From an uncultured Candidatus Saccharibacteria bacterium (lineage in GTDB: Bacteria; Patescibacteriota; Saccharimonadia; Saccharimonadales; Saccharimonadaceae), in assembly GCA_964581595.1 (NCBI GenBank), contig CAZOPB010000004.1, positions 12,018 to 76,017 of the forward strand: a stretch of 64,000 bases of DNA, read 5' to 3'. This document shows, one piece after another, positions 1,346 to 44,001 of the stretch (position 1 is its first letter; each line of letters begins with the position of its first letter). The translations under genes were made by a program, and so were the position numbers. The notes under the pieces were generated by a model. The model saw nothing but the letters and a program-made list of their open reading frames with translations, searched no databases and had not been told where the DNA came from.

Positions 1346-1349
1346 TTTT

Positions 1350-16410: not shown

Positions 16411-16495
16411 GCCCGAGTGGTGAAATTGGTATACACGTATGCCTTAGGAGCATATGCCGCAAGGTGTGCTGGTTCAAGTCCAGTCTCGGGCACCA
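16411..16495 (+). tRNA. tRNA-Leu, anticodon UAG, class II (long variable arm), CCA encoded
   Basis: Hand-folded cloverleaf: acceptor GCCCGAG/CTCGGGC, anticodon stem TATGC/GCATA with loop CTTAGGA, variable arm TGCCGCAAGGTGT, T arm GCTGG-TTCAAGT-CCAGT, then ACCA. Confidence 0.9.
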
Positions 16496-16889
16496 GAGGA
16501 AAAATAGTCCCGTCAGGGGCTGTTTTTACTCTGGTGCGTAACTTGAATTAGGCGTGAAGGACGCGTAGCGCCTGTGCTGGGTCTAGGCAGCAGGAAGTGA
16601 GTGAGGAAAAATATTGATATTTTTCCTCCGAACTGACGCCCTGCCGCTGAGCAAATCTTTGATTTGCGAAGTTGTCCAGTCTCGGGCGCCATCTCCTAGA
16701 GAAAACCATTTGGTTTTCGCTGGGCGATGTTTTTTGTTTCAAGAGACTGGGTTGAACCGCTAGTCGCCAGACTAGTGGTTCACCGGCGATGGGAGACGAG
16801 AGAAGAATAGATATATTTTATTCTTTCGAGGCGACGCCCCGACGAATTGGTGTTCGTAAGAAAAAACCAAGTTCCAGTCTCGGGCACCA
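16496..16889 (+). repeat. two tandem units of about 197 bp, each ending in a copy of the tRNA-Leu 3' end
   Basis: GTCCAGTCTCGGGCACCA in the tRNA (16478-16495) recurs as GTCCAGTCTCGGGCGCCA (16674-16691) and TCCAGTCTCGGGCACCA (16873-16889). The unit bodies are diverged but collinear: a hairpin after the previous copy, a GC-rich hairpin, an AT-rich hairpin, then GACGCC. Confidence 0.8.
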
Positions 16890-17178
16890 AGCAATACGAG
16901 AGTTGATTTCAGCCAACTCAGCAAAAGGCCCCAACAGATGAAAGTTGAGTCTTTTTTGTTGAATTTTGAGGTTCGAAACCATCAATCTCAAAATTTCTTT
17001 TGTATTACTTTTATAAACGCATACAGAATGAGCAAAATACTTAATAATACGATATATACATATAAATAAATTTAAGCCTAAAAGAGAATTAAACCTGAAT
17101 TAATTTTCTTGTCTAGAAGAATAAAGGATACATATACATATATTTCTAGTGTTAAATCAAATTTATTATTAAACGTTT

Positions 17179-19098
17179 TTATTTTTTATTGTTACTGCTC
17201 GACGGTAATAAATATTGAGCTAAAATCTCTTCTTTTTCTTCCTCGATTTTTTGAATAAGCTCTCTTATCTCTTCGACTCGTTTTTTACATTTATTGATTT
17301 TTTCTACTATATTGCGCTGAACATCAATCGGTGGTAGTGGTATTTTTATCAGTGATAAGTCATCAAATTTAAGCTGCGTGCGAACTCCGCCACCCGCGAG
17401 TCTATTAATTTCTTTATTAATAGCTCGTGTCTTTAGTATGATAAGTAAATACTCTGGATCAATTTTGTTCTCGTCGCAAGAAAACACTACATACATTGGG
17501 CTCACGCAACCTACTTTCGATGCGGTATTTAGAGCAATTGAGCCAACATTGATACGCGATGGATTATATGCAAAAAAGTTCTTCTTTATAACTTTATAAT
17601 TGCTTGTATCGTCAGACGCAACTTTGTGCGCAAAGTGCTTCTCCGGAAGTACAAACCCCTCCTTGTTTGAAACACTCCAGACTGGGATATCCGCATTTTT
17701 CACTCTTTCCTTTTCTTGCATTAATAGGTTTCCTAGCTCTTCCGTGAAATAGTCTGTCTGAATCTCATCCTGTTGTGATACATAGCGCCTCCCAGTGAGG
17801 ATATGGTGCTTATTTGCGAATATCGCTTTTTTATTCACAAAAAAGGCAAACTCACTGTCTAAATTGAGCGACTTATTGGATTGATATGCTTTAATAAGTT
17901 CTACTGCTCTTGGTATTTGACTACCTGGTATATCAGCTTGCGTCGCAGATAGAGTACGCCCGACATTTTCTATGTTGATAAAAAGTATGCCGTCTTGTTT
18001 TTTAGCTTTTGCTTTATCGAGCAGCAAAATATCAGTCTTAACATCGGCATACGGCAAGAATACGCCTTTAGGCAAACTAATTATGGAATACAAACTTTCA
18101 TTTAGAAGATTCTTTCTTAGTTCTGACAATGCTGAGTTATTTTTATTTGATGAAATGCCGTCGGGCACAATAATTGCAGCTCTTCCGGATGGTTTAAGGT
18201 GAGTAGATATATAATCTACGAAAAGAATTTCAGCTCTACTTGCCTGGATACTGAATTTTTTATGTGGATTGATCCCGCCTTTTGGCGTCATGAATGGCGG
18301 GTTAGCTAACACGACATCATACCGATCATCCCAATAGTCTTCTGAACTGAGAGTGTCATGTTCAATAATATTCGGCGACTTAAAACCGTGCAAGAACATG
18401 TTCACGCGAGCAATACGAGTCATATTTGGTTCAATATCAAATCCATAAAAATTATGATGGATCTTTTCCACCTCTTCGCTAGTTAGCCGATTATTTTTAC
18501 CATATTTCTTCATTAGGTGCCTGTAAGCCGAAATTAAAAAGCCAGCCGTACCACAAGCTGGATCTAGAATCTTATCAGTTTTATCCGGATCGATTAGTTC
18601 GACCATGAAATCAATAATGTGCCGTGGGGTACGAAATTGACCAAGGTCGCCCTGAGATCCCATAGTAGACAATAAGTACTCATAGGCATCGCCAATCGAG
18701 TCACCAGAATCGTGTTTGATTTTATCAATTTCACTGAGGAAGAGATTTAGGGTATTCGGATCGTTGAAGTTCAAGGTCGCGCCATTAAATATTTCTCGGA
18801 AAAGTGGAGGTAGATTAGGGTTACGACTCATATTCTCCAGTGCGCTACGGTATAGGGTTACGCGGTCATGACCAGTTACAGATGGACTCATGAGTTCGTG
18901 CCAGCCGTATTTTTCGTATTCTCCGGTGAAATATACCCGCTTACCGCCCAACGACACCGATTCGTCATCATTGTCGGACATAAACTTATAAATTAACGCG
19001 TAAGAGATCGCATCCACTTGCGCAACTGGGCTAGGCAATTTCCCGACTAAGACTGCCCTGGCATTGTCAATAATTTGCTTAAATTGCTTATAGTCCAT
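17179..19098 (-). CDS. hsdM: Type I R-M methyltransferase fused to a single-TRD (half) specificity subunit
   Basis: The gamma N6A MTase motifs are FRTPRHI, LDPACGTAGFL and VVLANPPFM. The C-terminal roughly 190 aa (about 17179-17740) look like one HsdS target-recognition domain plus a conserved helix (PPIDVQRNIVEKINKCKKRVEEIRELIQKIEEEKEEIL). No separate hsdS gene is present. Confidence 0.8.
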   Translation of the reverse strand: MDYKQFKQIIDNARAVLVGKLPSPVAQVDAISYALIYKFMSDNDDESVSLGGKRVYFTGEYEKYGWHELMSPSVTGHDRVTLYRSALENMSRNPNLPPLFREIFNGATLNFNDPNTLNLFLSEIDKIKHDSGDSIGDAYEYLLSTMGSQGDLGQFRTPRHIIDFMVELIDPDKTDKILDPACGTAGFLISAYRHLMKKYGKNNRLTSEEVEKIHHNFYGFDIEPNMTRIARVNMFLHGFKSPNIIEHDTLSSEDYWDDRYDVVLANPPFMTPKGGINPHKKFSIQASRAEILFVDYISTHLKPSGRAAIIVPDGISSNKNNSALSELRKNLLNESLYSIISLPKGVFLPYADVKTDILLLDKAKAKKQDGILFINIENVGRTLSATQADIPGSQIPRAVELIKAYQSNKSLNLDSEFAFFVNKKAIFANKHHILTGRRYVSQQDEIQTDYFTEELGNLLMQEKERVKNADIPVWSVSNKEGFVLPEKHFAHKVASDDTSNYKVIKKNFFAYNPSRINVGSIALNTASKVGCVSPMYVVFSCDENKIDPEYLLIILKTRAINKEINRLAGGGVRTQLKFDDLSLIKIPLPPIDVQRNIVEKINKCKKRVEEIRELIQKIEEEKEEILAQYLLPSSSNNKK

Positions 19099-19099
19099 T

Positions 19100-21643
19100 T
19101 TAATCCTTTACTCTTAGCTTATTTACGTTAATATAGTCTTTGATATAATTTACAATTTGGTTTACGCGATCTATCCCAAGTTCCTTTAACTGTCTCATAG
19201 AGATAGAACCAAAGCCAGATAATTCACCATACCGTTTATCATCGATTGCATCCGCTACTCTTCGGTCAGTAATATAAGCATCGAAGAGTTCGAAGGCATC
19301 ATTATATGACTGGCTAACTAGCTCATTCCCAAATTGCTTATCATTTACAAACTCGTCAAATCTAGCCTTTATATATTCAGCCTTAGTTAATGGTTCTTTA
19401 TTACTCATAATCAGATCTAAAATTTCCCGCAAATCCAGCCGCCGATCGAGCCCGAAAATCTTACGAATCTTCTCTGGAGTCATATAGAATTTAGGTTTAT
19501 CTTCTCCGAGAATATGATTTTTTAGGTAATTGAGTGACGCTTCAATATCACCGCGGTTATAGATACTCATGAATTCATCGTTAGATTTAACTTCGTCCTG
19601 AAAGCTACGAAACATCTCTCGGTCGATGCGCATACCGTCTTTCGTAACCACAGTTTCATCAACTTTTTTAAGGCTGTCAGACTCTGCTAAATCATATGGC
19701 ATTTCAATACCAACCGAAGGATTTGGATAATTTGTCGGAGGTAATGGTATAGTTCCTATGGTCGCCTCTTTCGCTCTCGGCACAACAAGCGGAGCATCAT
19801 AATCGTATTTTTCTTCGAAGTATTCACAGACGGCGAAAAAGTCAATTATATTAAAACTCTCTTTCTTAATCGTGATAAGACTTTCCTCATTAGAGTAATC
19901 AATCCATCTGAAGGTATGCATGCGCGTACCGCGCCCCTTCATTTGAATAAAATCCGACGGACTAAACACTGGTCGCATAAAGACTACGTTTTGCAAATCG
20001 GCGCAATCATATCCCGTCGTCATCATACCGACCGTTACCGCCACTCTAGCCTTACTGCTATCATAATCTGGCAACCAGCTAGTCTGGCCTCGGAGTTTAT
20101 TTTCGGAAAATTGGATTGTGTAATCCTGAGAATGCATAACGTTGCTCGTAATTTGTACGGCAAAATCCGAATTATATTTTCCGGGGAATTGCTCCATAGC
20201 CAATTTGTTTAAAATTTGGGTAATCCTCTCAGCATGTTTCTGACCAACAGTAAAGATGATGGACTTGCCGATTTCTCCGCTAATCGGATCCTTAGCAGCA
20301 TAACGCATAAAGGTCTCACATAGCACCCAGTTAGTTTCGTCATTAAAGAAGTTTTTTTCAAAGTCTCTAATACCGAAGCGTTCATCAATCTCAGAGCCAT
20401 CATCCTGTACTCGATGTACCGCATATCCTTGATCGTCCAGTAATTGAGAAGTAATATTCGTGCGAGCATCGTAGATAATTGGATTGACTAAGAAAGGTCC
20501 ATCCGGATCATTAACGCCGCTCTTTAAGTCATATCGGAAGGTGGGTTGTCCAGACTCACAGCCGAAAGTTCTGTATGTATCGAGCAATTCGCGGCACTCA
20601 AACTCGCGCTCACTATTCTCACTTTGCGTAGTGTTTTTTAAGAAGTCTTTCGGAGTAGCAGTAAGGCCGATCTTATATCCGTTAAAATACTCGAAGACCG
20701 CTCGAGCATTACCGCCAATCGAGCGGTGAGCTTCATCAGAGATAATCAAGTCAAAATCGCTTGGGCTAAAGCTACGATATCTATCCGAAGCAAGTAGCGA
20801 TTGCACCGTGCTCACCACAATGTGAGCGGTTTTCCAATTGTCTTTATCCTCTTTATAGGCTTTTACTATATAGTCGGATCCGATAGCTTGCGTAAAAGCC
20901 TTTTTGGCCTGATTTTCCAGTTCAATACGGTCCACTAAGAATAATACTCGTCGGGCATTGCCGGTTTTTAGGAAGAGCTTGATTATTGCGGCGCAAGTTA
21001 GGGTCTTGCCGGTACCGGTAGCCATTTCCAAAAGAAAGCGCTTCTTACCATTCTTTGCTGCTTTCTGAACCTTTCGGATTGCTTCAACCTGATACTTGCG
21101 AAGGATTTTTAGCTTATGTTTCTCAACAAAAGTTTTTCTTGCACTCTCGTTAATATAGTCGGGATGCTCTCTGAGGGTTGGCATTTGCGACGTTGCAATA
21201 TAGGCATTATCTACGTTCTCGCCGATTAAAGCCTCAACATCTGGATGCCATTCTTTATTTTGTATAAGCAACTCAAGCGACGGAAAACTGCTTATTGGCT
21301 CTGGGCTGCCGAATTGCATATCCCAAAGATAATGCGTATTCCCATTGCTCAGAATAACATAACGGACATGTAGAGAGTTGGCATATTCGCGAGCTTGTTC
21401 CTTAGCAGAGAGCGGAGGAATATCCTCGCGTTTAGCCTCTAATACTGCTATAGGTTTTTGATTTTCGTCTAACAAGAGATAGTCTACGAAACCATTTTTA
21501 GTATTCTCAAAATCATCGCCAAGATTAACTTTATTTTCCACGTCAACGGTCGCCGGACCGTTATCGTCAGCCAGCAGACGCCACCCAGAATCCTCTAGCA
21601 TTCTGTTTATTTTTAATCTTGCTTTTGCTTCCTTAACGCCCAT
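19100..21643 (-). CDS. hsdR: Type I restriction enzyme R subunit
   Basis: The N-terminal PD-(D/E)xK region reads FVDYLLLDENQKPIAVLEAKRE. The SF2 motor motifs are EMATGTGKT, IISDEAHRS and QMKGRGTR. Its stop lies 1 nt before the hsdM-S start. Confidence 0.85.
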   Translation of the reverse strand: MGVKEAKARLKINRMLEDSGWRLLADDNGPATVDVENKVNLGDDFENTKNGFVDYLLLDENQKPIAVLEAKREDIPPLSAKEQAREYANSLHVRYVILSNGNTHYLWDMQFGSPEPISSFPSLELLIQNKEWHPDVEALIGENVDNAYIATSQMPTLREHPDYINESARKTFVEKHKLKILRKYQVEAIRKVQKAAKNGKKRFLLEMATGTGKTLTCAAIIKLFLKTGNARRVLFLVDRIELENQAKKAFTQAIGSDYIVKAYKEDKDNWKTAHIVVSTVQSLLASDRYRSFSPSDFDLIISDEAHRSIGGNARAVFEYFNGYKIGLTATPKDFLKNTTQSENSEREFECRELLDTYRTFGCESGQPTFRYDLKSGVNDPDGPFLVNPIIYDARTNITSQLLDDQGYAVHRVQDDGSEIDERFGIRDFEKNFFNDETNWVLCETFMRYAAKDPISGEIGKSIIFTVGQKHAERITQILNKLAMEQFPGKYNSDFAVQITSNVMHSQDYTIQFSENKLRGQTSWLPDYDSSKARVAVTVGMMTTGYDCADLQNVVFMRPVFSPSDFIQMKGRGTRMHTFRWIDYSNEESLITIKKESFNIIDFFAVCEYFEEKYDYDAPLVVPRAKEATIGTIPLPPTNYPNPSVGIEMPYDLAESDSLKKVDETVVTKDGMRIDREMFRSFQDEVKSNDEFMSIYNRGDIEASLNYLKNHILGEDKPKFYMTPEKIRKIFGLDRRLDLREILDLIMSNKEPLTKAEYIKARFDEFVNDKQFGNELVSQSYNDAFELFDAYITDRRVADAIDDKRYGELSGFGSISMRQLKELGIDRVNQIVNYIKDYINVNKLRVKD

Positions 21644-21682
21644 TTACAATAACTCACTATGTTGCTATACATTATACCAAAC

Positions 21683-21718
21683 TTTTGTCACAAAATCCAC
21701 CTCTTTTTTGTGACAAAA
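21683..21718. promoter_or_regulatory. inverted pair of 13-nt palindromic boxes in the hsdR/abiEi divergent promoter region (candidate AbiEi operator)
   Basis: The boxes are TTTTGTCACAAAA (21683-21695) and TTTTGTGACAAAA (21706-21718), centres 23 bp apart. The second box covers the abiEi -35 (GTGACA 21710-21715, 17 nt before TATAAT 21733-21738). Confidence 0.6.
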
Positions 21719-21746
21719 TGCCTTCTCTAATGTATAATGGTAATAT

Positions 21747-22346
21747 ATGAGTGATCATGAACAAATTGAAATTAAAATCTTGGAAATGCCGTCGGGTAGT
21801 GTTTTTGTTGCTTCTGATTTTATCGATTTAGCTTCTTATGATAATATTCGACAGATTTTTTCGCGCCTTGAAACCGAAGGCAAAATTCGCCGTATTCTCC
21901 CTGGTATTTACGACAGACCAATTTACAGTAATATCCTTAAACAAAAAGTATCACCAGATGTTAATGCCGTCGCAGAAGCAATTGCCCGTAAAAATAATTG
22001 GTTTATTGTCCCTAGCGGCAATGTCGCGTTGAATTTATTAGGAATCTCTACGCAAGTTCCCGCTAAATGGGAGTATTTTAGTAGTGGCGACACTAAGGAT
22101 TACCAAGTTGGCAATATATCTATTAGTTTTATCCGTCGTGCTAATAAAGAGCTAAATCGAATGTCGACAAAGACCGCGCTCGTTATCCAGGCCATTAAAG
22201 CGCTTGGGGAAGAGAATATTTCTGAAGAGATCATAACTAAGCTTTCTGACAAATTAAGCAATGCGGAAAAAGCTCAACTACTTACAGAGGCAAAGCCGAC
22301 TACGGCTTGGATCTATGAAGTAATTAAGAAAATTTGTAAAGCATAA
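21747..22346 (+). CDS. abiEi: AbiEi-type antitoxin / transcriptional regulator (type IV TA)
   Basis: The N-terminal wHTH-like region (FVASDFIDLASYDNIRQIFSRLETEGKIRRILPGIYDRP) and its position directly upstream of an AbiEii gene (1-nt gap) support the call. Confidence 0.75.
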   Translation: MSDHEQIEIKILEMPSGSVFVASDFIDLASYDNIRQIFSRLETEGKIRRILPGIYDRPIYSNILKQKVSPDVNAVAEAIARKNNWFIVPSGNVALNLLGISTQVPAKWEYFSSGDTKDYQVGNISISFIRRANKELNRMSTKTALVIQAIKALGEENISEEIITKLSDKLSNAEKAQLLTEAKPTTAWIYEVIKKICKA

Positions 22347-22347
22347 A

Positions 22348-23352
22348 ATGTACGATTTGGCCAACCTTCCGAAAGCTGAGCTTGATGCTTTACTGCAAGA
22401 AGTTTCTAATGTCAAAAGTCTTAGCAAGGCAATCATTGAGAAGGATCTTTGGGTTTGTACCATCCTGGATTATATTTTTACGAAAAGCCCATGGAAAGAT
22501 AATTTCGCTTTTAAGGGCGGTACTAGTCTTTCTAAGGCCTATAATTTGATCGAGCATTTTTCCGAAGATATCGATTTAATTCTGGATTGGCGGGTGCTTG
22601 GTTACGATAAAACCGAGCCACTAGGAGAGCGCTCAACAAACCAGCAAGATAAACTCAACAAAGAGGTCCTTGCTAGGACATTGGATTTTTTGCAGACGAC
22701 ATTCATTCCAAAGATCACGGCGGACTTATCAAAACTAATTAATCGATATTTACAAATTATTTTTGAAGACAATGCTGTTGTCATTAGCTACGGTAATGAC
22801 TATGCCGACGAATCTATTTTGCATGCTATTCGTCTAGAAATCGGCGCATTAGCCGCCTGGACGCCAACTCAAATCGCAACAATCCGCCCATATATTGCTG
22901 AGACTTATCCGGAACATTTTAGGAATGCGTTTGTTGATGTTCGCACTACTACGCCAGAGCGTACTTTCTGGGAGAAGATTACGATTTTACATCGTGAGGC
23001 CTTCCGTCCGGAAGGTTCACTTCTGCCTCCTCGGATGTCGCGGCATTATTACGACACCTATCGCATGACAAAGCTTGGCATATTGGATCGAGCTTTGCAA
23101 AATTCAAGTCTGCTAAATCAAGTTACTGATTTTAAAGCCAAATTTTACCCACAAAAGTGGGCACACTACGAACTAGCCAAACTCGGCACTATTCGACTTA
23201 CTCCGCCGGAACATAGTCTTAGATTGCTTCAGCGTGACTATGCTGTTATGGCTGGGATGATTTATGGTAAAAGACCAGGATTCAACGAATTGATGGCGGA
23301 AATCGCTGGAATCGAGTATAAAATACAGCATGATCAAAACATAATAAGATAA
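22348..23352 (+). CDS. abiEii: AbiEii/AbiGii nucleotidyltransferase toxin (DUF1814)
   Basis: It has the FKGGTSLSKAY...FSEDIDL NTase signature. Its length and pairing with abiEi also fit. Confidence 0.8.
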   Translation: MYDLANLPKAELDALLQEVSNVKSLSKAIIEKDLWVCTILDYIFTKSPWKDNFAFKGGTSLSKAYNLIEHFSEDIDLILDWRVLGYDKTEPLGERSTNQQDKLNKEVLARTLDFLQTTFIPKITADLSKLINRYLQIIFEDNAVVISYGNDYADESILHAIRLEIGALAAWTPTQIATIRPYIAETYPEHFRNAFVDVRTTTPERTFWEKITILHREAFRPEGSLLPPRMSRHYYDTYRMTKLGILDRALQNSSLLNQVTDFKAKFYPQKWAHYELAKLGTIRLTPPEHSLRLLQRDYAVMAGMIYGKRPGFNELMAEIAGIEYKIQHDQNIIR

Positions 23353-23365
23353 TGAAGGAAGAATA

Positions 23366-24823
23366 ATGTATATTTCAAAAGTCAAATTACATAATTTTAG
23401 GGGATTTAAGAGTGATCATGAATTTACATTCAAAGATGGGGTTAATTTTTTAGTAGGCAATAACAATTGCGGGAAAACGTCACTTTTTAGAGCCGTAGAA
23501 TTTATACAATCAGGTAAGGAAATTAACCCGTACATTACAAAAGGTCTGGATGCTGAAGAATTCGTCTCGGTTGAAATGGAGCTAGCCGGAGAAGATCTGG
23601 AAAGTTTTATCAATTCAGCTGAAGGTCTTAGCAAATATAAACAGTACATTATCGAAGACAATGGATTAAAGGTGCTCAAGATTGCAAGAAGCAGCGAAGA
23701 AACTGAAATCACCCAGAACAAGAAGCCCAAGACTCTCACTATTAAAAATGTGCGTGTTTTTAACCAAAAAACTAATCAGTACGAAAATCCCGTCGGGATA
23801 GATAACACCATTGGCGCACTGTTTGAAACGCAATTTGTGTGGGCAGATATTAATATAGAAGATGTTGCCGACATCTCCAAAACCAAAATTTGCGGCAGAA
23901 TTATTAACAGTGTCATCAACAATAACAACAAAAGCTGGGAGGATTTTGCAAAAGCGCACGCTAAAGCATTTGGCGATATTCGAAATCAGTTGGAGCCAAT
24001 TGAGCAAACGCTTAAAAATAAGATGAGTGAACAATATGGTGACACTGAGATTAAGTTTAATTTCTCGTTACCAGAACTGTCGGATTTTTTAAAGTTTGGT
24101 ACAATCAATTTGTCAGATGATGGGATCCAAACAACTAGTTCGGAAAAAGGTACTGGGATGCAACGCGCACTCGCTCTAGCAATTATTCAAGTGTATGCCG
24201 AGATTGCGTCGAAAGTTGACGATAATATTGCAAAACCGCTTATATTCTTCCTTGATGAGCCAGAGACATTCTTGCATCCAGAAGCGCAGTCCCGTCTGCT
24301 AGAGGCTCTTGGTAAAATAGCGCAATCTTCGCAAATATTCATCGCCACACACTCACCATACCTGCTACGAAGTTTTAAAAGTGGCAATCATACATTATAC
24401 TCTTTCTCGAAACATCAAGGAGCAAATAGCGCAGAAGCCAGTACGGAGCTTAATCTGTTTGGCAAATCTAGTCCCACATGGGGAGAAATCAATTATAGAG
24501 CCTTCGGTGTAGTTTCTTACGAATTTCACGATGAACTTTATGGTTTCATCCAAGCGCACGCCATTAACGAAGATGAGAAGTACTATAAACCAAAAGACTT
24601 TGACCAATATTTGTGTCAAAAGAATCCTAATTTTATTATAAATAAGAAGTATAAGCATCTAAAATCCGACGGTAGTATTTCAGAATATGATACCACTATA
24701 GCAACATATATCCGTAATGTTATCCACCATCCAGAAAATCCCAATAATGCCAGATTCTCCACAGAGGATCTTGAGAAATCAATTAAGGATTTACTTTTAA
24801 TTATGGAAGATATTAGCAAATAA
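23366..24823 (+). CDS. OLD/RecF-like ABC ATPase (AAA_15/AAA_21 type) with an unassigned C-terminal domain of about 130 aa
   Basis: MYISKVKLHNFRGF, Walker A GNNNCGKTS, signature-like EKGTGMQRAL, Walker B IFFLDEPETFLHPE and H-loop IATHSP are present. I can see no TOPRIM, HNH or PD-ExK motif in the C-terminal part (about 24428-24823). It starts 13 nt after the abiEii stop, behind GAAGGAAG. Confidence 0.75.
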   Translation: MYISKVKLHNFRGFKSDHEFTFKDGVNFLVGNNNCGKTSLFRAVEFIQSGKEINPYITKGLDAEEFVSVEMELAGEDLESFINSAEGLSKYKQYIIEDNGLKVLKIARSSEETEITQNKKPKTLTIKNVRVFNQKTNQYENPVGIDNTIGALFETQFVWADINIEDVADISKTKICGRIINSVINNNNKSWEDFAKAHAKAFGDIRNQLEPIEQTLKNKMSEQYGDTEIKFNFSLPELSDFLKFGTINLSDDGIQTTSSEKGTGMQRALALAIIQVYAEIASKVDDNIAKPLIFFLDEPETFLHPEAQSRLLEALGKIAQSSQIFIATHSPYLLRSFKSGNHTLYSFSKHQGANSAEASTELNLFGKSSPTWGEINYRAFGVVSYEFHDELYGFIQAHAINEDEKYYKPKDFDQYLCQKNPNFIINKKYKHLKSDGSISEYDTTIATYIRNVIHHPENPNNARFSTEDLEKSIKDLLLIMEDISK

Positions 24824-35874: not shown

Positions 35875-36765
35875 TTAGTTAAGTAAATCTACAAATCTTA
35901 GAGGCTCGCCGAGCTCCCAGTCCATAATCTTAGCGTATTTACCGTTATGTTGATGGGGATTAAGCTTATCGCAACCGATACATCCTTTCCGGCAGCTCAT
36001 CGGGATGACATATTTAATGCCGTCCATCTGGAAAAGGTTCCACGAAATGATCTCAGCGATTTCTCTAAGCATAGAAAAATGACCGTTGGTCAGTTTTTTG
36101 GTCAAATCAATGGCTTGATCAGGAAATTTTGCATTCCAATAGTCAATAAAAGTATAGAGAAGATTTTCACGGGCAAGGAGGAGATTGTCGCCCTGCCATT
36201 CATAGCCATAGGAAGCGCAGTAGGCCTGCTTGGCCCACTCATACCAAGTCTCAGAATTATGGCAAAATCGCGATACGGCTTGCAATTTGCGGTCGAGAAA
36301 ACCAGTGCGACGCTCTAGTCTTAAGATTTTCTTGCCACTGACGACATTATATCTACTAACGATAAAAGGGGCTTCGCCGCAAGTAATCTCGAGACGCAAT
36401 TCCTGGACGTAGTCGTGCCAATTATTAGTATTAACCGGCCAATTTCCACTCTGCTGGTCGAGAGATTGATTCATGAAACTGACGACTGAGGGCGGAGTAA
36501 AAACCTCGGCTTTGTCGCGAGTGCGAGATTTTTGCTCGGTCTTGCTGCGGGTGATGCGCGGCTGAATGAGATTAATCTGCTCGCCGGTAACATCGTTTAG
36601 CTTAATCTCGGCTTTGGGTCTGTGTCCAGTATAGAAATCGGTCGCCCAGATGAGATGACGCGAAATCTCCTCTGTAGTGCGGGTACGGTCGAGCAAGAGA
36701 GTCGCCAGAATTTCCGGATGCTGGCGGAGAGCGTTCTCACTGGTCTCGGGAAGATTTGCCATCAT
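35875..36765 (-). CDS. hypothetical protein: degenerate gamma-MTase-like core with an N-terminal D-x9-ExK string and a C-terminal Cys3His2 cluster
   Basis: Its ATG directly abuts the TAA of the upstream 1342-aa gene. Motifs are TD-x9-EIK (aa 42-55), EVFTPPSVVSFM (87-98, MTase motif X-like), LEITCGEAPF (125-134, weak motif I), YGYEWQ (186-191), NGHF (227-230) where NPPY would be expected, and C258-x3-C-x2-C-x5-H-x-H273. Confidence 0.6.
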   Translation of the reverse strand: MMANLPETSENALRQHPEILATLLLDRTRTTEEISRHLIWATDFYTGHRPKAEIKLNDVTGEQINLIQPRITRSKTEQKSRTRDKAEVFTPPSVVSFMNQSLDQQSGNWPVNTNNWHDYVQELRLEITCGEAPFIVSRYNVVSGKKILRLERRTGFLDRKLQAVSRFCHNSETWYEWAKQAYCASYGYEWQGDNLLLARENLLYTFIDYWNAKFPDQAIDLTKKLTNGHFSMLREIAEIISWNLFQMDGIKYVIPMSCRKGCIGCDKLNPHQHNGKYAKIMDWELGEPLRFVDLLN

Positions 36766-39700
36766 TTAGAGCTTAATTCCTAGAAATTCCACTTCATTAG
36801 ACGTAAGATTATATTTATTACACAATGTTTTATCTATTTCATCAATAGATTTATTCCAATCGATATCGCTATTCGCAGAAAAATCTTGGTCGAGAATGAC
36901 GTCGCCAAAGGAAGCGCTACGATTCGGCTCTTGCAGGAGGAGGGCGGCGAAAAACTGAGTCCTAGTATACTTCACAAAATTATCGCACTCTGACTTATTG
37001 TTCGACATGAATAGCGCTAGGCGGCTACGACCGAAGGCGGAGCCTTTTGGTAGGATTTCAATCAGCTCGGCGGCGCGGTTTTGGACGTTATCAATAGAAG
37101 GTTTGCCGGAGACAAAAGTCTTCTTGGGATAGGCTGAAGCCATGACGACTTTATAGAGATCTAGGTATCCCTGCCCCTTAGGAATAGTGGATTCGTCGGT
37201 CCAGTAGCGTTTAGCGCGACCAGTGGAGCCGGATTTATCATTGGTTAGCAATAGGACAGGATTTGGCCAATCACTGCGCTCAAAAGAGACTAAGCCCGGA
37301 TTTTGCTCGACAAAGTTTGATTCAATGCCGAAAATTCCCTTTTTGATACGAGAGCACAGCTTAGGGCCGGAAAGTTTGCGATTAATCCTTACGAAGGCGG
37401 GGTTCGGGACGAGATTTTTCGCCTCACTAGTAATCACCCGCACAGAATCATCGCTATACATACGATTAGAGTAGCGAAAATCAGTGCGGGCCTTGCTCAA
37501 ATCGCGCAAGACAATGGCTACGCCCGCCGAGAGATCGGCGCCGCGGCCAAAAATCGGCTCAGGATCTTTATCCTTACGATACCAGGCGCGGCGATCAGCA
37601 GTACCTTCGAAAGCATCAATCGCCACGGTATGACCATCGCTGAGAATCTGCCGGCCAAAGCCACCGAGGCGCTCGGGAGAGTCGAACCAACCGCCAAAGG
37701 GATAAATTAGACAAGTATAATCTCCGAGCTGATCGGCGCTGCGCTGGAAATATTGATAAATCCAGTTGGAATTGCTTTGGGTCTGAGCAGCGGATTTGCT
37801 GACAGTTTCTTGGTAGGGCGGATTGCCGACGACGGCGGTGAATTTCATGTGGTCTCCTTCTATGTTAAATAATTCGTTAATTCTATAAGATAAATTGCGG
37901 CGTTTAGCATCTTTAGTAACGTCATATTCACGGAAATGCTCACGGCTAATAACTCGCTTCGAATCAAAACCAAAAATATAATTCGTCGTAATCGCGGCAA
38001 GAATGGGCGTAGGCGCGAGCCCGTAAACCTGATGTTCCAAAATATGACGAACGCAATCAGTGTCACTATAATATCGACTACGAGTTTGCTCAAAAATACG
38101 CTTAACAATCTCGGTAATGAACATGCCGGATTTCATGTATGGATCGAGGAAGGTATGTTCGGTACTCGCGAAGATGCCCGGCTGATGCCATTCTAGGCGG
38201 TCGATCATGGCTTTGACTACTGAGCGCGGAGTAAAAATTTGATTGGTGTGCTGCGGCAAGATAAAGCTAAAAATGTCATCCGTAGCGTCTTTTTGATAAT
38301 AATTGGCTAGTTGGACGCGGCGACGATTAAATTCCCGAATAGATTCATTGAATTTATCTTCATCAAATAATCCATTGAAATGCGCCGCTTTCGGCTTGCC
38401 ATCTTTATCAACAGTTTCATAATCCATGCCATCACGGAGTTTATAAAAATCTGCCTTGGTAATGCTAGTCAATTCCTCGAAAACATCTTCGGGAATATTG
38501 TCACCAAAATTACCCAAAGTAGTAGCCGGCGTGCCATAAGCCATGAGGAAGCTCGGAATAGTGCGCACAAAACCGCGGAGACGATCACGAACTTTTTCCT
38601 CGGCAGATTTCTGGCGGGGCGGGAGATTATCAATCGATAATTTAGCATGGTAATCTGGATCATCCGGAGTAGGCTCATTTGCGGGGAGCTTTGCGACTAG
38701 CTTCGGCAGGCGACGGCTAAGAGCGTCTTTTACAGCAGCGATAGATGCGGCAGAATAATTGGCGTGATGAGCGGCGGTAATAAATTCATCCATAATCGAT
38801 TCAACGGCATCACCTTCGCTAGTACCGATTTCGGCATATCTTTTATCGTCAAGTAAGCCATACGTAGTGGTGATGACGATATCTTCATTAATATGGAGCG
38901 TCTTGTCTTTATCGAGCCAAATACGTGGAGCGATAGCGAGGTCGGTCTTATGCTTACTGTCGCGTTCGACACTTTGGTCGGCTTTGGCTTCGTCGAGCTT
39001 ATTGATGATTGCACGAATTTCCTCGGGGCAGCCAAAAATCCCGCTAATATTCTTAAACAAGCGATTACTCATAAAGCCGCGATTGACGACTTCTGCGGCG
39101 ATGAGGCGGTTCGGAACCGTAAGGACTTCATGAGCGTCAAGATAATGCATGCGGCCTTCATCATCTTCGGCGATAACGGGGAGAAAATTGATCAATGCTT
39201 TTATCCTGTGCTCGCGAGAGATGCTAGATGTATCAGAGGTGCCAAAATCGGCGATTTCGGCTAAGATTTGAAGGATACGATCGGGAGCAAAATCAAAGAT
39301 GAAACAAGTTTTTTTCGTAAAATATTCGCCACCGGAAGTACAGACGCTAAAAGGATTTTGCGCGCGGAAAGCAGATTGCATGTAGAGGCTGGGTGATTTA
39401 CAATTATTGAGTATGAAAACCGCCGTCCAAGCCGGGATAGTAACCCCGGTAGTGAGCTGCCCGCAAGAAAGGGTAATCGTGCGCGTCTCGAGCGGGTGGA
39501 GACTCGCGTCGGGGCCATCAATACGGTGGCGGACTTCGCTAAGGGCGGTCCTAGTCAGGCGATCTTCGTCACCATTACCGGCGGCGAGGATAATATCTTC
39601 GGGCTGGTAATTAGCTCCAAAATAAACATCTTCGAGTAGAAGCTTCTTAAACTGCTCGCAGGCTTTGATGCCTGGGAGTAGCCAAAAAGTATGACGTAAA

Positions 39701-40794
39701 CTATCACGATAAGCCGCTTGACTAAAGGGATATTGATATTTAGGATTACTAAGGTTTTTAATAAAATCCCGGACGTGAGCTTCGTGGAGGAAATGCTCCT
39801 CACCGGCAATTTTGCCGACTCTGAAGAGTTCTGCCAGATCAAAGGCATATTCACTACCTTCAATCTGAGCTTCTCTAGTAGTGATACCGAGAATGCGCGG
39901 GAGCCGATAAGTAAAGATCTCCATACGCGGCAGACCAGCATAAGGATTTGACCTGGATTTGGAAGGCCAATTTTGCTTCATAGCCTGTTCGTCGGTGTAG
40001 GACCAGTTAAAAATCTGCTGGCTGGAAAATTTGTTATTAGCGATAGCCTTAAACGGCGTGCCAGAAAGGTGTAGAGTGAAGCGGCTCTTGACCTGCTCGA
40101 AGACTCGCAGAGCCTTTTTGGTATCAGCTCCTTCATGACTCTCATCAATGATGACAAGATCCCAGCCAGCAGGGTCAGAGCTTGGCTCAGAATTAGGCGC
40201 AGGATTCTGCCCGAGATTAAAAATCCAAGAGTTCTTTTGCTTAAAACCGGAAATATCGCGACCCTTAATATCTTGCAGGGAGATAAAATGGATGAAATTT
40301 TTGGCGACGAGATCAGGATCTTTAAGCTGCTGCTCGCGAGTATAAATATCGCTGGGGCTACCAAGGCGTTTTTTGACGGCGGCGGAACTAGTGAAGATCC
40401 AGCGGAATTTATCGTCAGCTTGGCCAGCGTCCGCGAAGTCAAAATCTTTGAAATTGCTATACCATGAATCGGCAATGGCCGGACGATTAGTGACAATAAG
40501 GACTTTACTGGCATGAAGCTGAGCGGCAAAGCTATAAGCGGTCAAAGTTTTACCGAAGCGAGGCTTGGCATTCCAGAGGAAAGTCGGCTGGAGACGAGAA
40601 TCATGCTGACACTTTGCGTAATAATCAAGGCTTTGCTGGATGGCGGAATTTTGCTCGTCGCGGAGAGCAAAATCAGTAATATAATCCGCCGAGGGCTTGG
40701 CTTTTGAGACCTTAAACGCTTTAAACATAGTAGAAGATACACTCCTAGACTTTGAATCTAGGAGATCATGAGCGGAATTCACGGTTTTTCGCAT
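36766..40794 (-). CDS. SF2 helicase / N6-adenine DNA methyltransferase (Eco57I-like gamma class) fusion protein with a TRD-sized C-terminal region
   Basis: Helicase motifs are PRFGKT (aa 78-83), IIDESH (215-220), LSGTPF (243-248) and QSAFRAQN (473-480). MTase motifs are QIFTPRSVV (852-860), FLDPYMKSGMF (882-892) and NPPY (991-994), followed by about 350 further aa. No nuclease motif is seen. GTGAGG SD lies upstream. Confidence 0.8.
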   Translation of the reverse strand: MRKTVNSAHDLLDSKSRSVSSTMFKAFKVSKAKPSADYITDFALRDEQNSAIQQSLDYYAKCQHDSRLQPTFLWNAKPRFGKTLTAYSFAAQLHASKVLIVTNRPAIADSWYSNFKDFDFADAGQADDKFRWIFTSSAAVKKRLGSPSDIYTREQQLKDPDLVAKNFIHFISLQDIKGRDISGFKQKNSWIFNLGQNPAPNSEPSSDPAGWDLVIIDESHEGADTKKALRVFEQVKSRFTLHLSGTPFKAIANNKFSSQQIFNWSYTDEQAMKQNWPSKSRSNPYAGLPRMEIFTYRLPRILGITTREAQIEGSEYAFDLAELFRVGKIAGEEHFLHEAHVRDFIKNLSNPKYQYPFSQAAYRDSLRHTFWLLPGIKACEQFKKLLLEDVYFGANYQPEDIILAAGNGDEDRLTRTALSEVRHRIDGPDASLHPLETRTITLSCGQLTTGVTIPAWTAVFILNNCKSPSLYMQSAFRAQNPFSVCTSGGEYFTKKTCFIFDFAPDRILQILAEIADFGTSDTSSISREHRIKALINFLPVIAEDDEGRMHYLDAHEVLTVPNRLIAAEVVNRGFMSNRLFKNISGIFGCPEEIRAIINKLDEAKADQSVERDSKHKTDLAIAPRIWLDKDKTLHINEDIVITTTYGLLDDKRYAEIGTSEGDAVESIMDEFITAAHHANYSAASIAAVKDALSRRLPKLVAKLPANEPTPDDPDYHAKLSIDNLPPRQKSAEEKVRDRLRGFVRTIPSFLMAYGTPATTLGNFGDNIPEDVFEELTSITKADFYKLRDGMDYETVDKDGKPKAAHFNGLFDEDKFNESIREFNRRRVQLANYYQKDATDDIFSFILPQHTNQIFTPRSVVKAMIDRLEWHQPGIFASTEHTFLDPYMKSGMFITEIVKRIFEQTRSRYYSDTDCVRHILEHQVYGLAPTPILAAITTNYIFGFDSKRVISREHFREYDVTKDAKRRNLSYRINELFNIEGDHMKFTAVVGNPPYQETVSKSAAQTQSNSNWIYQYFQRSADQLGDYTCLIYPFGGWFDSPERLGGFGRQILSDGHTVAIDAFEGTADRRAWYRKDKDPEPIFGRGADLSAGVAIVLRDLSKARTDFRYSNRMYSDDSVRVITSEAKNLVPNPAFVRINRKLSGPKLCSRIKKGIFGIESNFVEQNPGLVSFERSDWPNPVLLLTNDKSGSTGRAKRYWTDESTIPKGQGYLDLYKVVMASAYPKKTFVSGKPSIDNVQNRAAELIEILPKGSAFGRSRLALFMSNNKSECDNFVKYTRTQFFAALLLQEPNRSASFGDVILDQDFSANSDIDWNKSIDEIDKTLCNKYNLTSNEVEFLGIKL

Positions 40795-41140
40795 TAATTT
40801 TACCTCACTATCTTGATATATTATACCACAGCTCAGGAGATTTACGAAGAGAGGGGCGAAAAATGTCGTTTTTGGGCGTAAATTGACCGGATTTTATTAT
40901 ATTACAACATAATCATATTATTATGGCAAAATAGTTATGTTTTTATGATTTGGCGCTAGAGGGCATCTAGAAGGCCATGGTGAAGGTTTAGCTCAAAAAT
41001 GAATTTTTATACCTCTTATGCTTAATAGCGCTATTGCAGGGCTTCTACGCACGTTAAACAGGGGTGAGTTTTAATGCTTTTCACCTCCATATTTTCATTT
41101 GACTTCTCCATATGATTATTGTCTAATACAACCACTTTAC

Positions 41141-42499
41141 CTAGTTTTGCAATAATTTGGCCAGTTTTCCTCGCACGCCGCCTTCATCTGGAGCGCCTGC
41201 TAAGGTATCGAGGGCGACACGGAGTAATCCGAGCGCAGTCACATATGAATGGTCCAGAGTAACACTGGTCCGATTCTCAATTCCAGGGATATCTGACGAA
41301 TTGACTAGATGGATAACGGGGCGACGAGCGAAGGGTAGCTCCTTAAACCAATCAGTAGTACTGAGGACGTCTTGCAATTCGCCCAGTCCAGCACCACCAC
41401 CACAGAGCAGGATTTTATTAGGCAACATTTCGCTAAGTTTGAACTCTTCGAGGGTGATTTGCACGCCAGAGAGCCAGACGGCAAGATTGCGCTGGATAGC
41501 AAGCATCATTTTGTCGCGCATGTCGGCGGGGACTTTGGTCGGGTTATTGATGCTGAGCTTATAACTCTCGGCGGTATCAAAATCAACATTTAGGGCTTCG
41601 GCAATCTGGTGAGTGAAGCTGCGGCCGCCGATGCCAAACATCTTGGTACCCTCGACGCCACCATCATCAATTACGGCGATGTCGGTAGTGCCGCCACCAA
41701 TATCCATCACGATAGCCGAGAGATTGCCATCGAGATCATCACCGAGACAGGCCCGGCAGACCGCAAAAGGCTCAACCGCCACGGCTAATAGATCTAACTG
41801 CAGCTCTGCACAAACCTTCTCAATCGCGGAGATATGTACCAGCGGCGCAAAGGCAGTGTAAAATTGAATTACAACATCGGTACCCTTGAAGCCAATGGGA
41901 TTGGAAATCTTATAGCCATCGATCGTGATGCTGACGATCGCGGAATTGATTAATCTAACTTCGACATTGGGATTATTCGTCTCATCAGCAATGTCTTTGC
42001 GAGCCTGCTCGCCGGCGCGATCCTGGACACGTTTAATAATGAGCGACATTTCCTGCTCAGTGAGAGGCTTATTGCCATTCTTGCGACGATAGCGGACGGT
42101 ACTAGTATTACCCTTGATAAGCTCACCGGCAATACCGACGACGACAGTCTTACTGGTGACGCCAGCCATTTTTTCGGCTTGATCGAGGGCCTTTTCACAG
42201 ACTTCGACAACGGCCGGAATATCGGCGATGGCGCCAGCATACATATTACTAGCGCCTTGATGAGCCTTGCCGACGCCGATAATCTCGAGATCACCAGATT
42301 TAGGCTGCTTGGCAATGACGGCTTTGACAAATTCAGTACCAATGTCAAGAGACAGGATCGTATCTTCGCTGCTACGCTTAATATCGAGCTCAGAAGTGAC
42401 GTCTTTTGGAATTTCTTCAGCATTAGTGGAGCGGACTGCTTCGGCAGCAGCTTTGACTTTTGCTTTGGTTGCGCTAACTGTTTTAGAGAAAAAGCCCAT
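41141..42499 (-). CDS. ftsA: actin-like ATPase, cell-division protein FtsA-like
   Basis: LSLDIGTEFVKAVI (phosphate 1), an inserted SHS2/1C-like segment, VMDIGGGTTDIAVI (phosphate 2), ILLCGGGAGL and a C-terminal amphipathic tail GVRGKLAKLLQN are present. PilM cannot be strictly excluded. Confidence 0.65.
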   Translation of the reverse strand: MGFFSKTVSATKAKVKAAAEAVRSTNAEEIPKDVTSELDIKRSSEDTILSLDIGTEFVKAVIAKQPKSGDLEIIGVGKAHQGASNMYAGAIADIPAVVEVCEKALDQAEKMAGVTSKTVVVGIAGELIKGNTSTVRYRRKNGNKPLTEQEMSLIIKRVQDRAGEQARKDIADETNNPNVEVRLINSAIVSITIDGYKISNPIGFKGTDVVIQFYTAFAPLVHISAIEKVCAELQLDLLAVAVEPFAVCRACLGDDLDGNLSAIVMDIGGGTTDIAVIDDGGVEGTKMFGIGGRSFTHQIAEALNVDFDTAESYKLSINNPTKVPADMRDKMMLAIQRNLAVWLSGVQITLEEFKLSEMLPNKILLCGGGAGLGELQDVLSTTDWFKELPFARRPVIHLVNSSDIPGIENRTSVTLDHSYVTALGLLRVALDTLAGAPDEGGVRGKLAKLLQN

Positions 42500-42510
42500 A
42501 TTTTTACCTC

Positions 42511-43887
42511 TTAGATTTCTTCGTAATTATCGCCCTCATTAGTATCATCTTCAATCATAATCCATTCGCCGGTCTCTTCGTCGTAGATGAAATCCATGTC
42601 ATCGTATTCGTTATTATTACCAAGCATCTCCGTGATGGCTTCGACTAGCATATCGACGAGGTCACTAATCGGACGGTAATTTTCGGGAGCCTCTATGCTG
42701 ACTTCTGGGTGACTAAATTCAAAGTTACCGGCAAATTCCGTATCGTTTTGTTTATAGCTGACTCCAGCACTAACTAGCTCATGCCCGAAATCTCTGATAC
42801 CGAGCGTAAACTCAGTGCCTTCGAGACCTTCGCGGATCTTGTCGGCTTCGGCAGACGTATTCTCGAAATTAACCTCACCACCTAAATCATCGACAATGTA
42901 TTTGCGAATACAATTCTCGGCGCTCTTGGCAGCTTCTGACTCCATAAGAGCATTAGAAAAGCTGGCCATTTTGTCATAGTCAATATTAACGCTGTAATTA
43001 GTGACACCGCTAGCCTTAGATTTATTAGACGAAGGAGCAATATTAACAAACCGATTCTGACTATAAACCGAAGCAATTTCGCCATTGATATCACTATGAG
43101 CGACATTCACTAGACAAGCATAGAATTCTTTAGTGGAACGAGCAAGCGCAGGGTCTTCTACGACATTATCAACGACGTCATCTACATCGACTTGCCACCA
43201 CTCGCCATCGACATTACTAAGAAGCTTGTAGATGGCCTGGCCGCTAGCGTCGAGGTCATCGATAGTAATTGACATATCATCCATGAATAAATCTACGGTA
43301 TCCATGAGCTTACCAGTGCGAAAATAGAAAACGCCATCCGACATGACGATGCCGCCGAGCTCGACTTCGTATTGATTATCCGAGAGCAGCTCGCCATTAG
43401 CATCGAGCATACTAGCCTTAATGGTGACGATGCCATCACCCGAAGTAGTAGTAGATTTATTCTTAAGATCGACAGTAATCGAGACTTCACCATTGTCGGT
43501 ATTGGCGTGGCCGGTAAAGGTACCATCGCTGACGACGGTCTTTTGCTGCAAAAAGCCATTGATAGCATCAAAAGCAACCTTTTCTGGATTGTTATAATAG
43601 AGGAAATACCAAGCCGCAGCGCCGCCTAGCCCGAGAATAAGGACTAGCACGATGATAATAACTGCGATGAGGCCTTTATGCTTTTTCTTGGATGGAGTGG
43701 CTGGCGCAACGACGGAGCCATCAGCTCCAGTGACCATAGCAGGATTGTTTGCTGCCTGGCCTGGAATATTCCCGTTTGATAAATTATCGGCACTGACAGC
43801 ACCAGGATTAGCATTAGTATTTGCGGGTTGATTGTTTTGATTTGGCGTATCGCCTCCGCTTCCCTGCATCACGGGGTTTTGGTCCAT
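42511..43887 (-). CDS. single-pass membrane protein with a low-complexity N-terminus and an acidic C-terminus, hypothetical
   Basis: The ATG at 43887 follows AAGGAGGG. The TM helix is GLIAVIIIVLVLILGLGGAAAWYFLYY. It appears to be co-oriented in one operon with the ftsA-like gene. Confidence 0.6.
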   Translation of the reverse strand: MDQNPVMQGSGGDTPNQNNQPANTNANPGAVSADNLSNGNIPGQAANNPAMVTGADGSVVAPATPSKKKHKGLIAVIIIVLVLILGLGGAAAWYFLYYNNPEKVAFDAINGFLQQKTVVSDGTFTGHANTDNGEVSITVDLKNKSTTTSGDGIVTIKASMLDANGELLSDNQYEVELGGIVMSDGVFYFRTGKLMDTVDLFMDDMSITIDDLDASGQAIYKLLSNVDGEWWQVDVDDVVDNVVEDPALARSTKEFYACLVNVAHSDINGEIASVYSQNRFVNIAPSSNKSKASGVTNYSVNIDYDKMASFSNALMESEAAKSAENCIRKYIVDDLGGEVNFENTSAEADKIREGLEGTEFTLGIRDFGHELVSAGVSYKQNDTEFAGNFEFSHPEVSIEAPENYRPISDLVDMLVEAITEMLGNNNEYDDMDFIYDEETGEWIMIEDDTNEGDNYEEI

Positions 43888-44001
43888 AGCCCTCCTTACT
43901 TTTACTTCATTATAACACAAGAATTCAAAAAGTGTAAAGATTTTATGCTTTATGGAAGGATTTATTATACGTTTATGCTAATCTTGTGTTATAATCTACT
44001 T

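Follow-up and report, generated by a model that had tools for sequence, protein, structure and literature searches.

In a 64,000-nucleotide stretch of the genome of an uncultured Candidatus Saccharibacteria bacterium (assembly GCA_964581595.1, contig CAZOPB010000004.1, positions 12,018 to 76,017; hereafter the window), two abutting genes on the reverse strand encode a 1342-residue helicase–methyltransferase fusion, here called the large protein, and a 296-residue partner, the small protein. We read the pair, with slightly better than even confidence, as a split methyltransferase tethered to a motor, in a nuclease-deleted allele of a widespread two-gene, ATP-dependent restriction-modification (R-M) family of Type ISP-like build. 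The pair is a member of that family and has lost the family's nuclease domain. The small protein is a near-obligate partner of the large fusions and corresponds to a methyltransferase N-lobe, and the parts that remain are under purifying selection.

The large open reading frame (ORF; 36766..40794, minus strand) encodes a superfamily 2 (SF2) helicase, a coupler, a gamma-class N6-adenine (N6A) methyltransferase and a target-recognition domain (TRD), and its TAA stop codon is followed immediately by the ATG of the small ORF (35875..36765, minus strand). All features of the pair given below lie on this strand. The SF2/ResIII helicase motor spans residues 42–520 (39235..40671), with the strings PRFGKT (residues 78–83), IIDESH (215–220), LSGTPF (243–248) and QSAFRAQN (473–480), and is followed by a coupler or linker at residues 521–838 (38281..39234). 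An internal N-lobe-like segment, residues 839–982 (37849..38280), carries the motif X sequence NQIFTP (within the string QIFTPRSVVKAM, residues 852–863), a non-canonical motif I, D-P-Y-M-K-S-G-M-F (within FLDPYMKSGMF, 882–892), and a motif II, QVYGLAPT, without an acidic residue. The catalytic C-lobe and TRD, residues 983–1342 (36769..37848), run from MKFTAVVGNPPYQ to DIDW..IDxxLxxKYxLTxxEVEFL, with NPPY at residues 991–994. This last module also corresponds to PADLOC model PDLC03375, and is found as free-standing phage proteins. Pfam placed ResIII at residues 42–248 and Eco57I at residues 921–1062, and our own module hidden Markov models (HMMs) scored 747 (HEL), 455 (COUP), 229 (NHALF) and 497 (CHALF) bits. 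The REBASE-derived models of PADLOC assigned the large protein to PDLC03626 'REase_MTase_IIG' (6e-28). Neither Pfam nor PADLOC detected a nuclease domain in it. A first-pass annotation, made from the letters alone, had described both ORFs, their junction and a set of motif strings, every one of which we found in place. It had also proposed an R-M or defence-type module of Type ISP-like build, with motor, gamma methyltransferase and TRD in a large chain devoid of a nuclease, and this description stands.

The small protein has no match in Pfam or NCBIfam, and PDB sequence searches with both proteins and their family profiles gave no useful match. Over its full length it matches PADLOC model PDLC03390 'MTase_II' (327 residues; E = 1.7e-70). 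Its family comprises at least 8000 clusters at 90% identity and 1176 representatives at 50%, and occurs in at least 581 species genomes. The invariant elements of the family are EVFTP, E-I-x-C-G-E-x-P-F, YGYEWQGD, AREN and S-W-N-x-x-Q-M-D-G. In the window protein we located a motif X, EVFTPPSVVSFM, at residues 87–98 (36472..36507); a motif I, LEITCGEAPF, at residues 125–134 (36364..36393), on predicted strand β1; a motif II together with the next helix, YGYEWQGDNLLLAREN, at residues 186–201 (36163..36210), on predicted strand β2; and a candidate motif III, ISWNLFQMDG, at residues 240–249 (36019..36048), on predicted strand β3. The putative S-adenosylmethionine (AdoMet)-binding motifs X, I and II (EVFTP, EITCGEAPF and YGYE) are invariant and are common to complete, fused methyltransferases. 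The first-pass annotation had called LEITCGEAPF a weakened motif I; this is contradicted by its residues E126, I127, C129, G130, E131, P133 and F134, which are invariant even when the complete-methyltransferase relatives are included. Free and fused lobes of the small type keep the same residues invariant.

The fused relatives reveal what the small protein is part of. Among the 151 best small-family representatives, 31 are fusions of an N-lobe and a C-lobe, 550–720 residues in length, in which the entire small-protein sequence is followed by MKFDxVxGNPPYQ and then by a C-terminal region ending DIDW...LYKKYxLTxEEIxFIE. Their C-half corresponds to PDLC03375, the same module as the last 360 residues of the large protein, and the Pfam Eco57I model spans the junction, starting at YGYE. 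An AlphaFold 2 (AF2) model of one fusion, P0158 (predicted local distance difference test, pLDDT, 88.8), resembles CamA, M.BseCI, BrxX/PglX, BpuSI, MmeI and M.TaqI, with E values from 1e-16 to 1e-10 over about 660 columns. Because of the C-lobe fusions, the Eco57I match across their junction and the likeness of the P0158 model to CamA- and TaqI-type enzymes, the small protein is identified as the free-standing N-terminal, putatively AdoMet-binding lobe of a CamA/TaqI-like gamma-class N6A methyltransferase, comprising motifs X, I, II and the candidate motif III. It stops after β3 and a hairpin, just before β4 and NPPY, which begins only in the extra C-half of the fused relatives; since it has no motif IV, it is not a stand-alone methyltransferase, and the 296-residue family should not carry names such as methylase or 'endonuclease subunit M'. 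The earlier proposal of a methyltransferase-derived protein lacking the catalytic NPPY was therefore right. The NGHF string (residues 227–230) that had been placed at the NPPY position is present; it falls in a variable stretch in our alignment of 18 homologues, and the protein ends before the NPPY position.

The same 18-homologue alignment bears on two strings that had suggested a nuclease. The TD-x9-EIK string (residues 42–55) exists as described, but of its D-x9-ExK residues D43 and K55 vary and only E53 is invariant. The Cys3-His2 cluster, C-x3-C-x2-C-x5-H-x-H at residues 258–273 (35947..35994), likewise exists, but is dispensable, being missing from the homologues P0117, P0120, P0158 and L094; from its distribution it appears to be an optional Zn-ribbon-like insertion and not a catalytic site. 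An HNH-like reading of the cluster was ruled out on its absence from many homologues. Helices dominate the AF2 model of the small protein (pLDDT 82.5), which also has three short strands and ends in a hairpin, the strand pattern being half-Rossmann. With Foldseek we found neither the α-β-β-β-α-β core of a PD-(D/E)xK nuclease nor an HNH fold or match in it. The near-verbatim repeat of motif X in the two proteins, from which a duplication had been proposed, is a real resemblance. It is, however, the sole part that hhalign aligned between the small-protein profile and the N-lobe of the large protein (33 columns, E = 0.005), on which grounds we rejected a recent internal duplication with the two as close paralogues.

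The pairing of the two genes was surveyed in 80 genome loci scanned with one HMM per module, of which 62 with more than 5 kb of upstream sequence were counted as informative. Directly upstream of the small gene and on the same strand, we found a C-lobe in 61 of these 62 loci, a helicase in 60 and a nuclease in 56. The gap between the two genes is mostly 5–85 bp, and no more than 85 bp in 58 of the 73 loci where it could be measured. The small protein is a near-obligate partner of large fusions, with or without the nuclease, and so a dedicated one, as had been suspected. The order can be reversed, with the small gene first and the two still adjacent or overlapping, as in L096/L097 and in 26 of the 80 best IMG/VR loci that made up our viral sample. 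In one protein, P0248, a small module, a nuclease and a helicase are naturally fused in a single chain. Inserts of 0.4–4.4 kb separate the pair in 15 loci and carry DUF1016/YhcG, Fic/DUF4062/HATPase_c_4, AlbA_2, Bro-N, KilA-N or AAA_14 genes, the set usually embedded in Type I R-M operons. Genes downstream of the pair are not conserved (92 singletons among 127), and the neighbours that could be named are other defence genes: Mrr, SduA and GmrSD. A conserved third gene supplying a nuclease was ruled out on this variability, with Mrr, SduA and GmrSD as independent defence-island neighbours. At L069 (2995–8936), a small-protein homologue lies downstream of a 1120-residue PLDc_2-SNF2 helicase and a Bro-N protein.

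The large protein has more than 8000 homologues. A typical member has about 1415 residues, with an N-terminal T5orf172 domain (GIY-YIG-type; PF10544) ahead of the helicase, coupler, gamma N6A methyltransferase and TRD. Our own HMMs recognized this domain in 107 of the 120 best homologues but not in the other 13, to which the window protein belongs; nuclease loss, judged from these sequences, is recurrent among them. In the window allele we found no match to the NUC HMM, and no tblastn remnant upstream of the large ORF. P0272, the 1488-residue large protein of locus L098, is 81% identical to that of the window and retains T5orf172. At the DNA level, homology of the two loci is interrupted between window positions 41134 and 40672, where a 463-bp segment (40672..41134), made up of the intergenic region and codons 1–41, stands in place of 741 bp in L098 and has no blastn homology to them. 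Those 741 bp include the first 175 codons of the L098 gene and its T5orf172 domain. Because the syntenic L098 keeps the domain and homology breaks at this point, the window allele and that of L093 (88% identical) represent an in-situ deletion of the nuclease domain, and the segment is its scar. L094, 56% identical to the window, is also nuclease-less at the same locus. Codons 1–41 of the large ORF (40672–40794) have a synonymous divergence (dS) of 0.07 between the window and L093, against 0.5–1.3 for the remainder of the gene, which suggests a recent origin or exchange of the N-terminal segment.

The nuclease-less system is under purifying selection. At a dS of about 0.6–0.7 between the window and L093, the large gene has a ratio of nonsynonymous to synonymous substitution (dN/dS) of 0.078 and the small gene one of 0.13. 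By domain of the large protein it is 0.09 for the helicase, 0.13 for the coupler, 0.046 for the internal N-lobe, 0.022 for the NPPY core and 0.046 for the TRD, so that the C-lobe and TRD together lie at 0.02–0.05. With every remaining domain at 0.02–0.13, the system is kept by selection, motor included. The residues that are invariant in the family are all retained in the window large protein. In every subfamily, motif I of the large protein's N-lobe reads (D/E)-x-x-x-K-[S/E]-G-x-[F/Y] and the motif II acid is absent, and the segment can be aligned to the N6_Mtase and TIGR02987 profiles. A methionine in 'MKF(D/T)xVVGNPPYQ', Met983 in the window (37846–37848), is conserved inside large proteins and coincides with the start codon of free C-lobe genes such as gp277 of phage PTm1; the residue might be left over from a fusion of genes or serve as an internal start.

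Such free C-lobes are found in phages. In the Tenacibaculum phages PTm1 and PTm5, gp277 (344 residues) consists of the C-lobe only and begins MKFDIIVGNPPYQ, and gp279 is a small-protein homologue; a helix-turn-helix gene lies between them in PTm1 (L179, NC_049340.1, 193941–196373). The C-lobe of PTm1 shares 74% identity with the C-terminal ends of helicase-type large proteins. As the pair resembles one split methyltransferase, the labels 'DNA methyltransferase' for gp277 and 'restriction endonuclease subunit M' for gp279 are misleading. In a prophage-like region of Saccharimonadales (L086), beside a terminase, the C-lobe gene is a 5'-truncated large-subunit gene with the small-protein gene 4 bp later, and on a 125-kb phage-like contig (L181) a small-protein gene is followed by a C-lobe-only gene. 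Proteins of about 343 residues that consist of a C-lobe and nothing else are common. A C-lobe alone has no cofactor site, and the phage pairs therefore make sense only with the small protein supplying that site in trans. A further 51 of the 80 best IMG/VR loci carry an orphan small-protein homologue, with no C-lobe, helicase or nuclease within 6 kb, and in 47 of these 51 no ORF with (N/D)PP(Y/F/W) was found nearby. The orphans (loci L122–L178; for example L140, 6001–6780, and L123, 5950–6735) have about 255 residues, keep all N-lobe motifs and lack the Zn cluster. They occur in viruses of three lineages, mostly human-gut phages of 55–60 kb and some jumbo phages, and could act in anti-defence.

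The window pair itself is chromosomal, in a stretch that also encodes FISUMP domains, RecG, enolase and DnaE, and sits between a PilM/FtsA-like gene and a FISUMP gene. The window and L098 share the gene order enolase, a gene of about 460 codons, the PilM-like gene, the large gene and the small gene, and L093, L094 and L098 all carry the pair at the same syntenic locus as the window. The PilM/FtsA-like gene (452 residues; 99% identical between the window and L093) and its unannotated neighbour of about 460 residues, together at 41141–43920 (minus strand), always precede the module beside enolase in the window, L093, L094 and L098. Both probably belong to the host and flag a site of stable integration, outside the system itself. 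No near-identical DNA of the locus was found in phage, plasmid and E. coli collections.

In the mechanism that we favour, the small protein would dock in trans on the catalytic C-lobe of the large protein (residues 983–1342) to form an active N6-methyladenine (m6A) methyltransferase. The system of the window lineage would then methylate an asymmetric target and still translocate on DNA, and would not cut by itself; it might serve as a motor-coupled modification enzyme, with an epigenetic role or one in protection from cognate alleles that bear the nuclease, or in nuclease-independent exclusion of DNA. We arrive at this reading because the N-lobe of the large protein is non-canonical and because in phage contexts the module is reduced to a C-lobe gene and a separate small-protein gene. 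Several observations pull the other way. The N-lobe-like segment of the large protein is in its canonical position before NPPY and is among the most conserved parts (dN/dS 0.046), and the docking site of the C-lobe may therefore be filled in cis, leaving the small protein to some other task. P0248 joins the small module to the nuclease–helicase end and not to the methyltransferase end. At L069, no methyltransferase C-lobe was found within 8 kb, so that the small-protein homologue there has a different partner architecture, and the majority of the viral homologues are the orphans described above. A Foldseek search of the PDB with the small protein alone gave nothing significant, with MmeI and LlaBIII appearing only at E > 1 (TM score 0.27), and no experimentally characterized member of the family was found in the literature searched. 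A rival reading casts the small protein as an accessory or regulatory subunit. The large protein would then be complete by itself, binding AdoMet through its K-S-G N-lobe, and the small protein, as a second AdoMet-binding or a degenerate lobe, would license or tune restriction versus modification or aid DNA binding, by analogy with dead or truncated partners such as Dnmt3L and METTL14. The strong conservation of the large protein's N-lobe, its alignment to gamma methyltransferase profiles, the P0248 fusion and the PLD-SNF2 neighbour of the L069 homologue all suit this alternative. It nevertheless seems to us unlikely, if still a serious contender, given that phage and prophage modules dispense with the K-S-G N-lobe while retaining the C-lobe and its small partner, that the small protein keeps all residues invariant in complete fused methyltransferases, and that no subfamily has a motif II acid in the N-lobe of its large protein. 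A bolder variant, which we consider rather unlikely, is that the detached AdoMet-binding lobe is a trans-acting control subunit, indispensable for methylation by the large protein, that sets modification versus restriction, with some phages capturing the minimal module, at least three lineages carrying orphans that could hijack or poison the host large subunit, and the nuclease-less allele being kept as a motor-driven epigenetic methyltransferase or for exclusion of DNA independent of a nuclease.

The remaining explanations carry much less weight than the split methyltransferase. Loss of the nuclease here, its recurrence in 13 of the 120 best homologues, and the B. subtilis dnmA-yeeB-yeeC cluster, which shows no restriction in that host and has itself been read as a 'relic' (PMC9973331), would be in keeping with a functionless pair that has decayed since the deletion. 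Both ORFs are intact, though, with dN/dS of 0.078 and 0.13 since the nuclease-less ancestor shared with L093 and of 0.09 even for the helicase, and the family-invariant residues are all retained, making decay improbable. The first-pass annotation had favoured a split Type ISP-like enzyme in which the nuclease was moved onto the small protein, with the D-x9-ExK or Zn/His site carried on a dead methyltransferase scaffold. The literal strings do exist and the large protein has no nuclease domain, but with D43 and K55 variable, the Cys/His cluster missing in several homologues and no PD-(D/E)xK or HNH match to the AF2 model, we regard this as very improbable; the nuclease of the family is T5orf172 on the large protein, deleted in the window allele, and the small protein is present whether T5orf172 is or not. 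We give least credence, almost none, to the DarB-like anti-restriction or mobile-element role that had been offered as an alternative for the large protein. Helicase–methyltransferase fusions do occur on phages and plasmids, and relatives of the pair are found on IMG/VR contigs. Against this, the locus lies on the chromosome, with synteny in L093, L094 and L098, phage and plasmid collections hold no near-identical DNA match, and typical relatives bear a nuclease and sit among defence genes.

Two further regions of the window encode defence-type genes. Directly after a tRNA-Leu, a low-GC island (16411–24823; GC content 0.38–0.41 versus about 0.47) carries an HsdM-HsdS fusion (17179..19098, minus strand), an HsdR-like HSDR_N+ResIII protein (19100..21643, minus strand), a DUF6088/AbiEii toxin–antitoxin pair (21747..23352, plus strand) and an AAA_15/AAA_21 ATPase (23366..24823, plus strand). 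Some 15 kb away from the pair, these genes make up another ATP-dependent R-M system, this time with a nuclease, and a defence island. At 641–3224 (minus strand), a HerA/DUF87-like ATPase of 624 residues overlaps an ORF that is also of 296 residues; these may form another defence-type pair.

If the split-methyltransferase reading is true, the family would constitute a large class of ATP-dependent R-M systems, spread over at least 581 species genomes and particularly frequent in Saccharibacteria/Patescibacteria and Bacteroidota, for which the tool label 'Type IIG plus Type II methylase' misstates the division of labour between subunits as well as the kind of nuclease. It would provide a natural case of a DNA methyltransferase divided between one protein for cofactor binding and another for catalysis, and would account for the phage pairs of C-lobe and N-lobe and for the orphan N-lobes. 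It also predicts an asymmetric m6A motif in the source organism, laid down by a nuclease-less, motor-coupled enzyme. Should the small protein be a trans-acting control subunit, hijacking or poisoning of the host large subunit by phage orphans would represent a new anti-restriction strategy.

Among known systems, the architecture of the family is closest to that of Type ISP enzymes such as LlaGI and LlaBIII, in which nuclease, SF2 translocase, coupler, gamma N6A methyltransferase and TRD follow one another in one chain, as they do in the family; the logic of asymmetric-site recognition combined with ATP-driven translocation would probably be shared as well. Type ISP enzymes couple ATP-dependent translocation to collision-dependent cleavage. 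The match fails on nuclease type and on single-chain sufficiency. The Type ISP nuclease is an Mrr-type PD-(D/E)xK domain, whereas that of the family is of the T5orf172/GIY-YIG type and the window allele has none; and a single chain suffices there, whereas the family has a small partner gene in 61 of the 62 informative loci. The large protein further differs in its K-S-G motif I, and has no sequence-level match in the PDB. With CamA, M.TaqI and M.BseCI, the fused relatives of the small protein share a fold and the small protein itself shares TaqI-like motifs X, I and II; unlike those enzymes, it ends before β4/NPPY and has neither a catalytic lobe nor a DNA-recognition domain. Type IIG/IIL systems (Eco57I with M.Eco57I, MmeI, BpuSI) likewise combine an Eco57I-family methyltransferase with a second methyltransferase-like gene beside the fusion, but they lack a helicase, and the companion here is without motif IV.

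A methyltransferase fold or function spread over two polypeptides, one of them without catalytic motifs, is known from M.AquI, M.EcoHK31I alpha/beta and Dnmt3a-Dnmt3L. The likeness to these ends with the two polypeptides, since they are cytosine-C5 enzymes with other split points, and none is tethered to a helicase-nuclease. In the literature on T5orf172, helicase and methyltransferase combinations, on Type ISP and GIY-YIG enzymes and on split methyltransferases, we found no description of the family or of a half-methyltransferase partner, and only one analogue, DnmA(YeeA)-YeeB-YeeC of B. subtilis. There, a gamma m6A methyltransferase acting at a non-palindromic site, an SF2 helicase and a T5orf172 protein are three separate proteins, which do not restrict in B. 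subtilis and whose homologues in Vibrio crassostreae affect phage sensitivity (PMC9973331). Compared by domain content only, that cluster has the same three activities as the family and an RM-like but atypical phenotype; its methyltransferase, in contrast, is MmeI-like and complete, with no half-methyltransferase partner described (PMC9973331). DnmA-YeeB-YeeC is the closest described functional analogue of the family.

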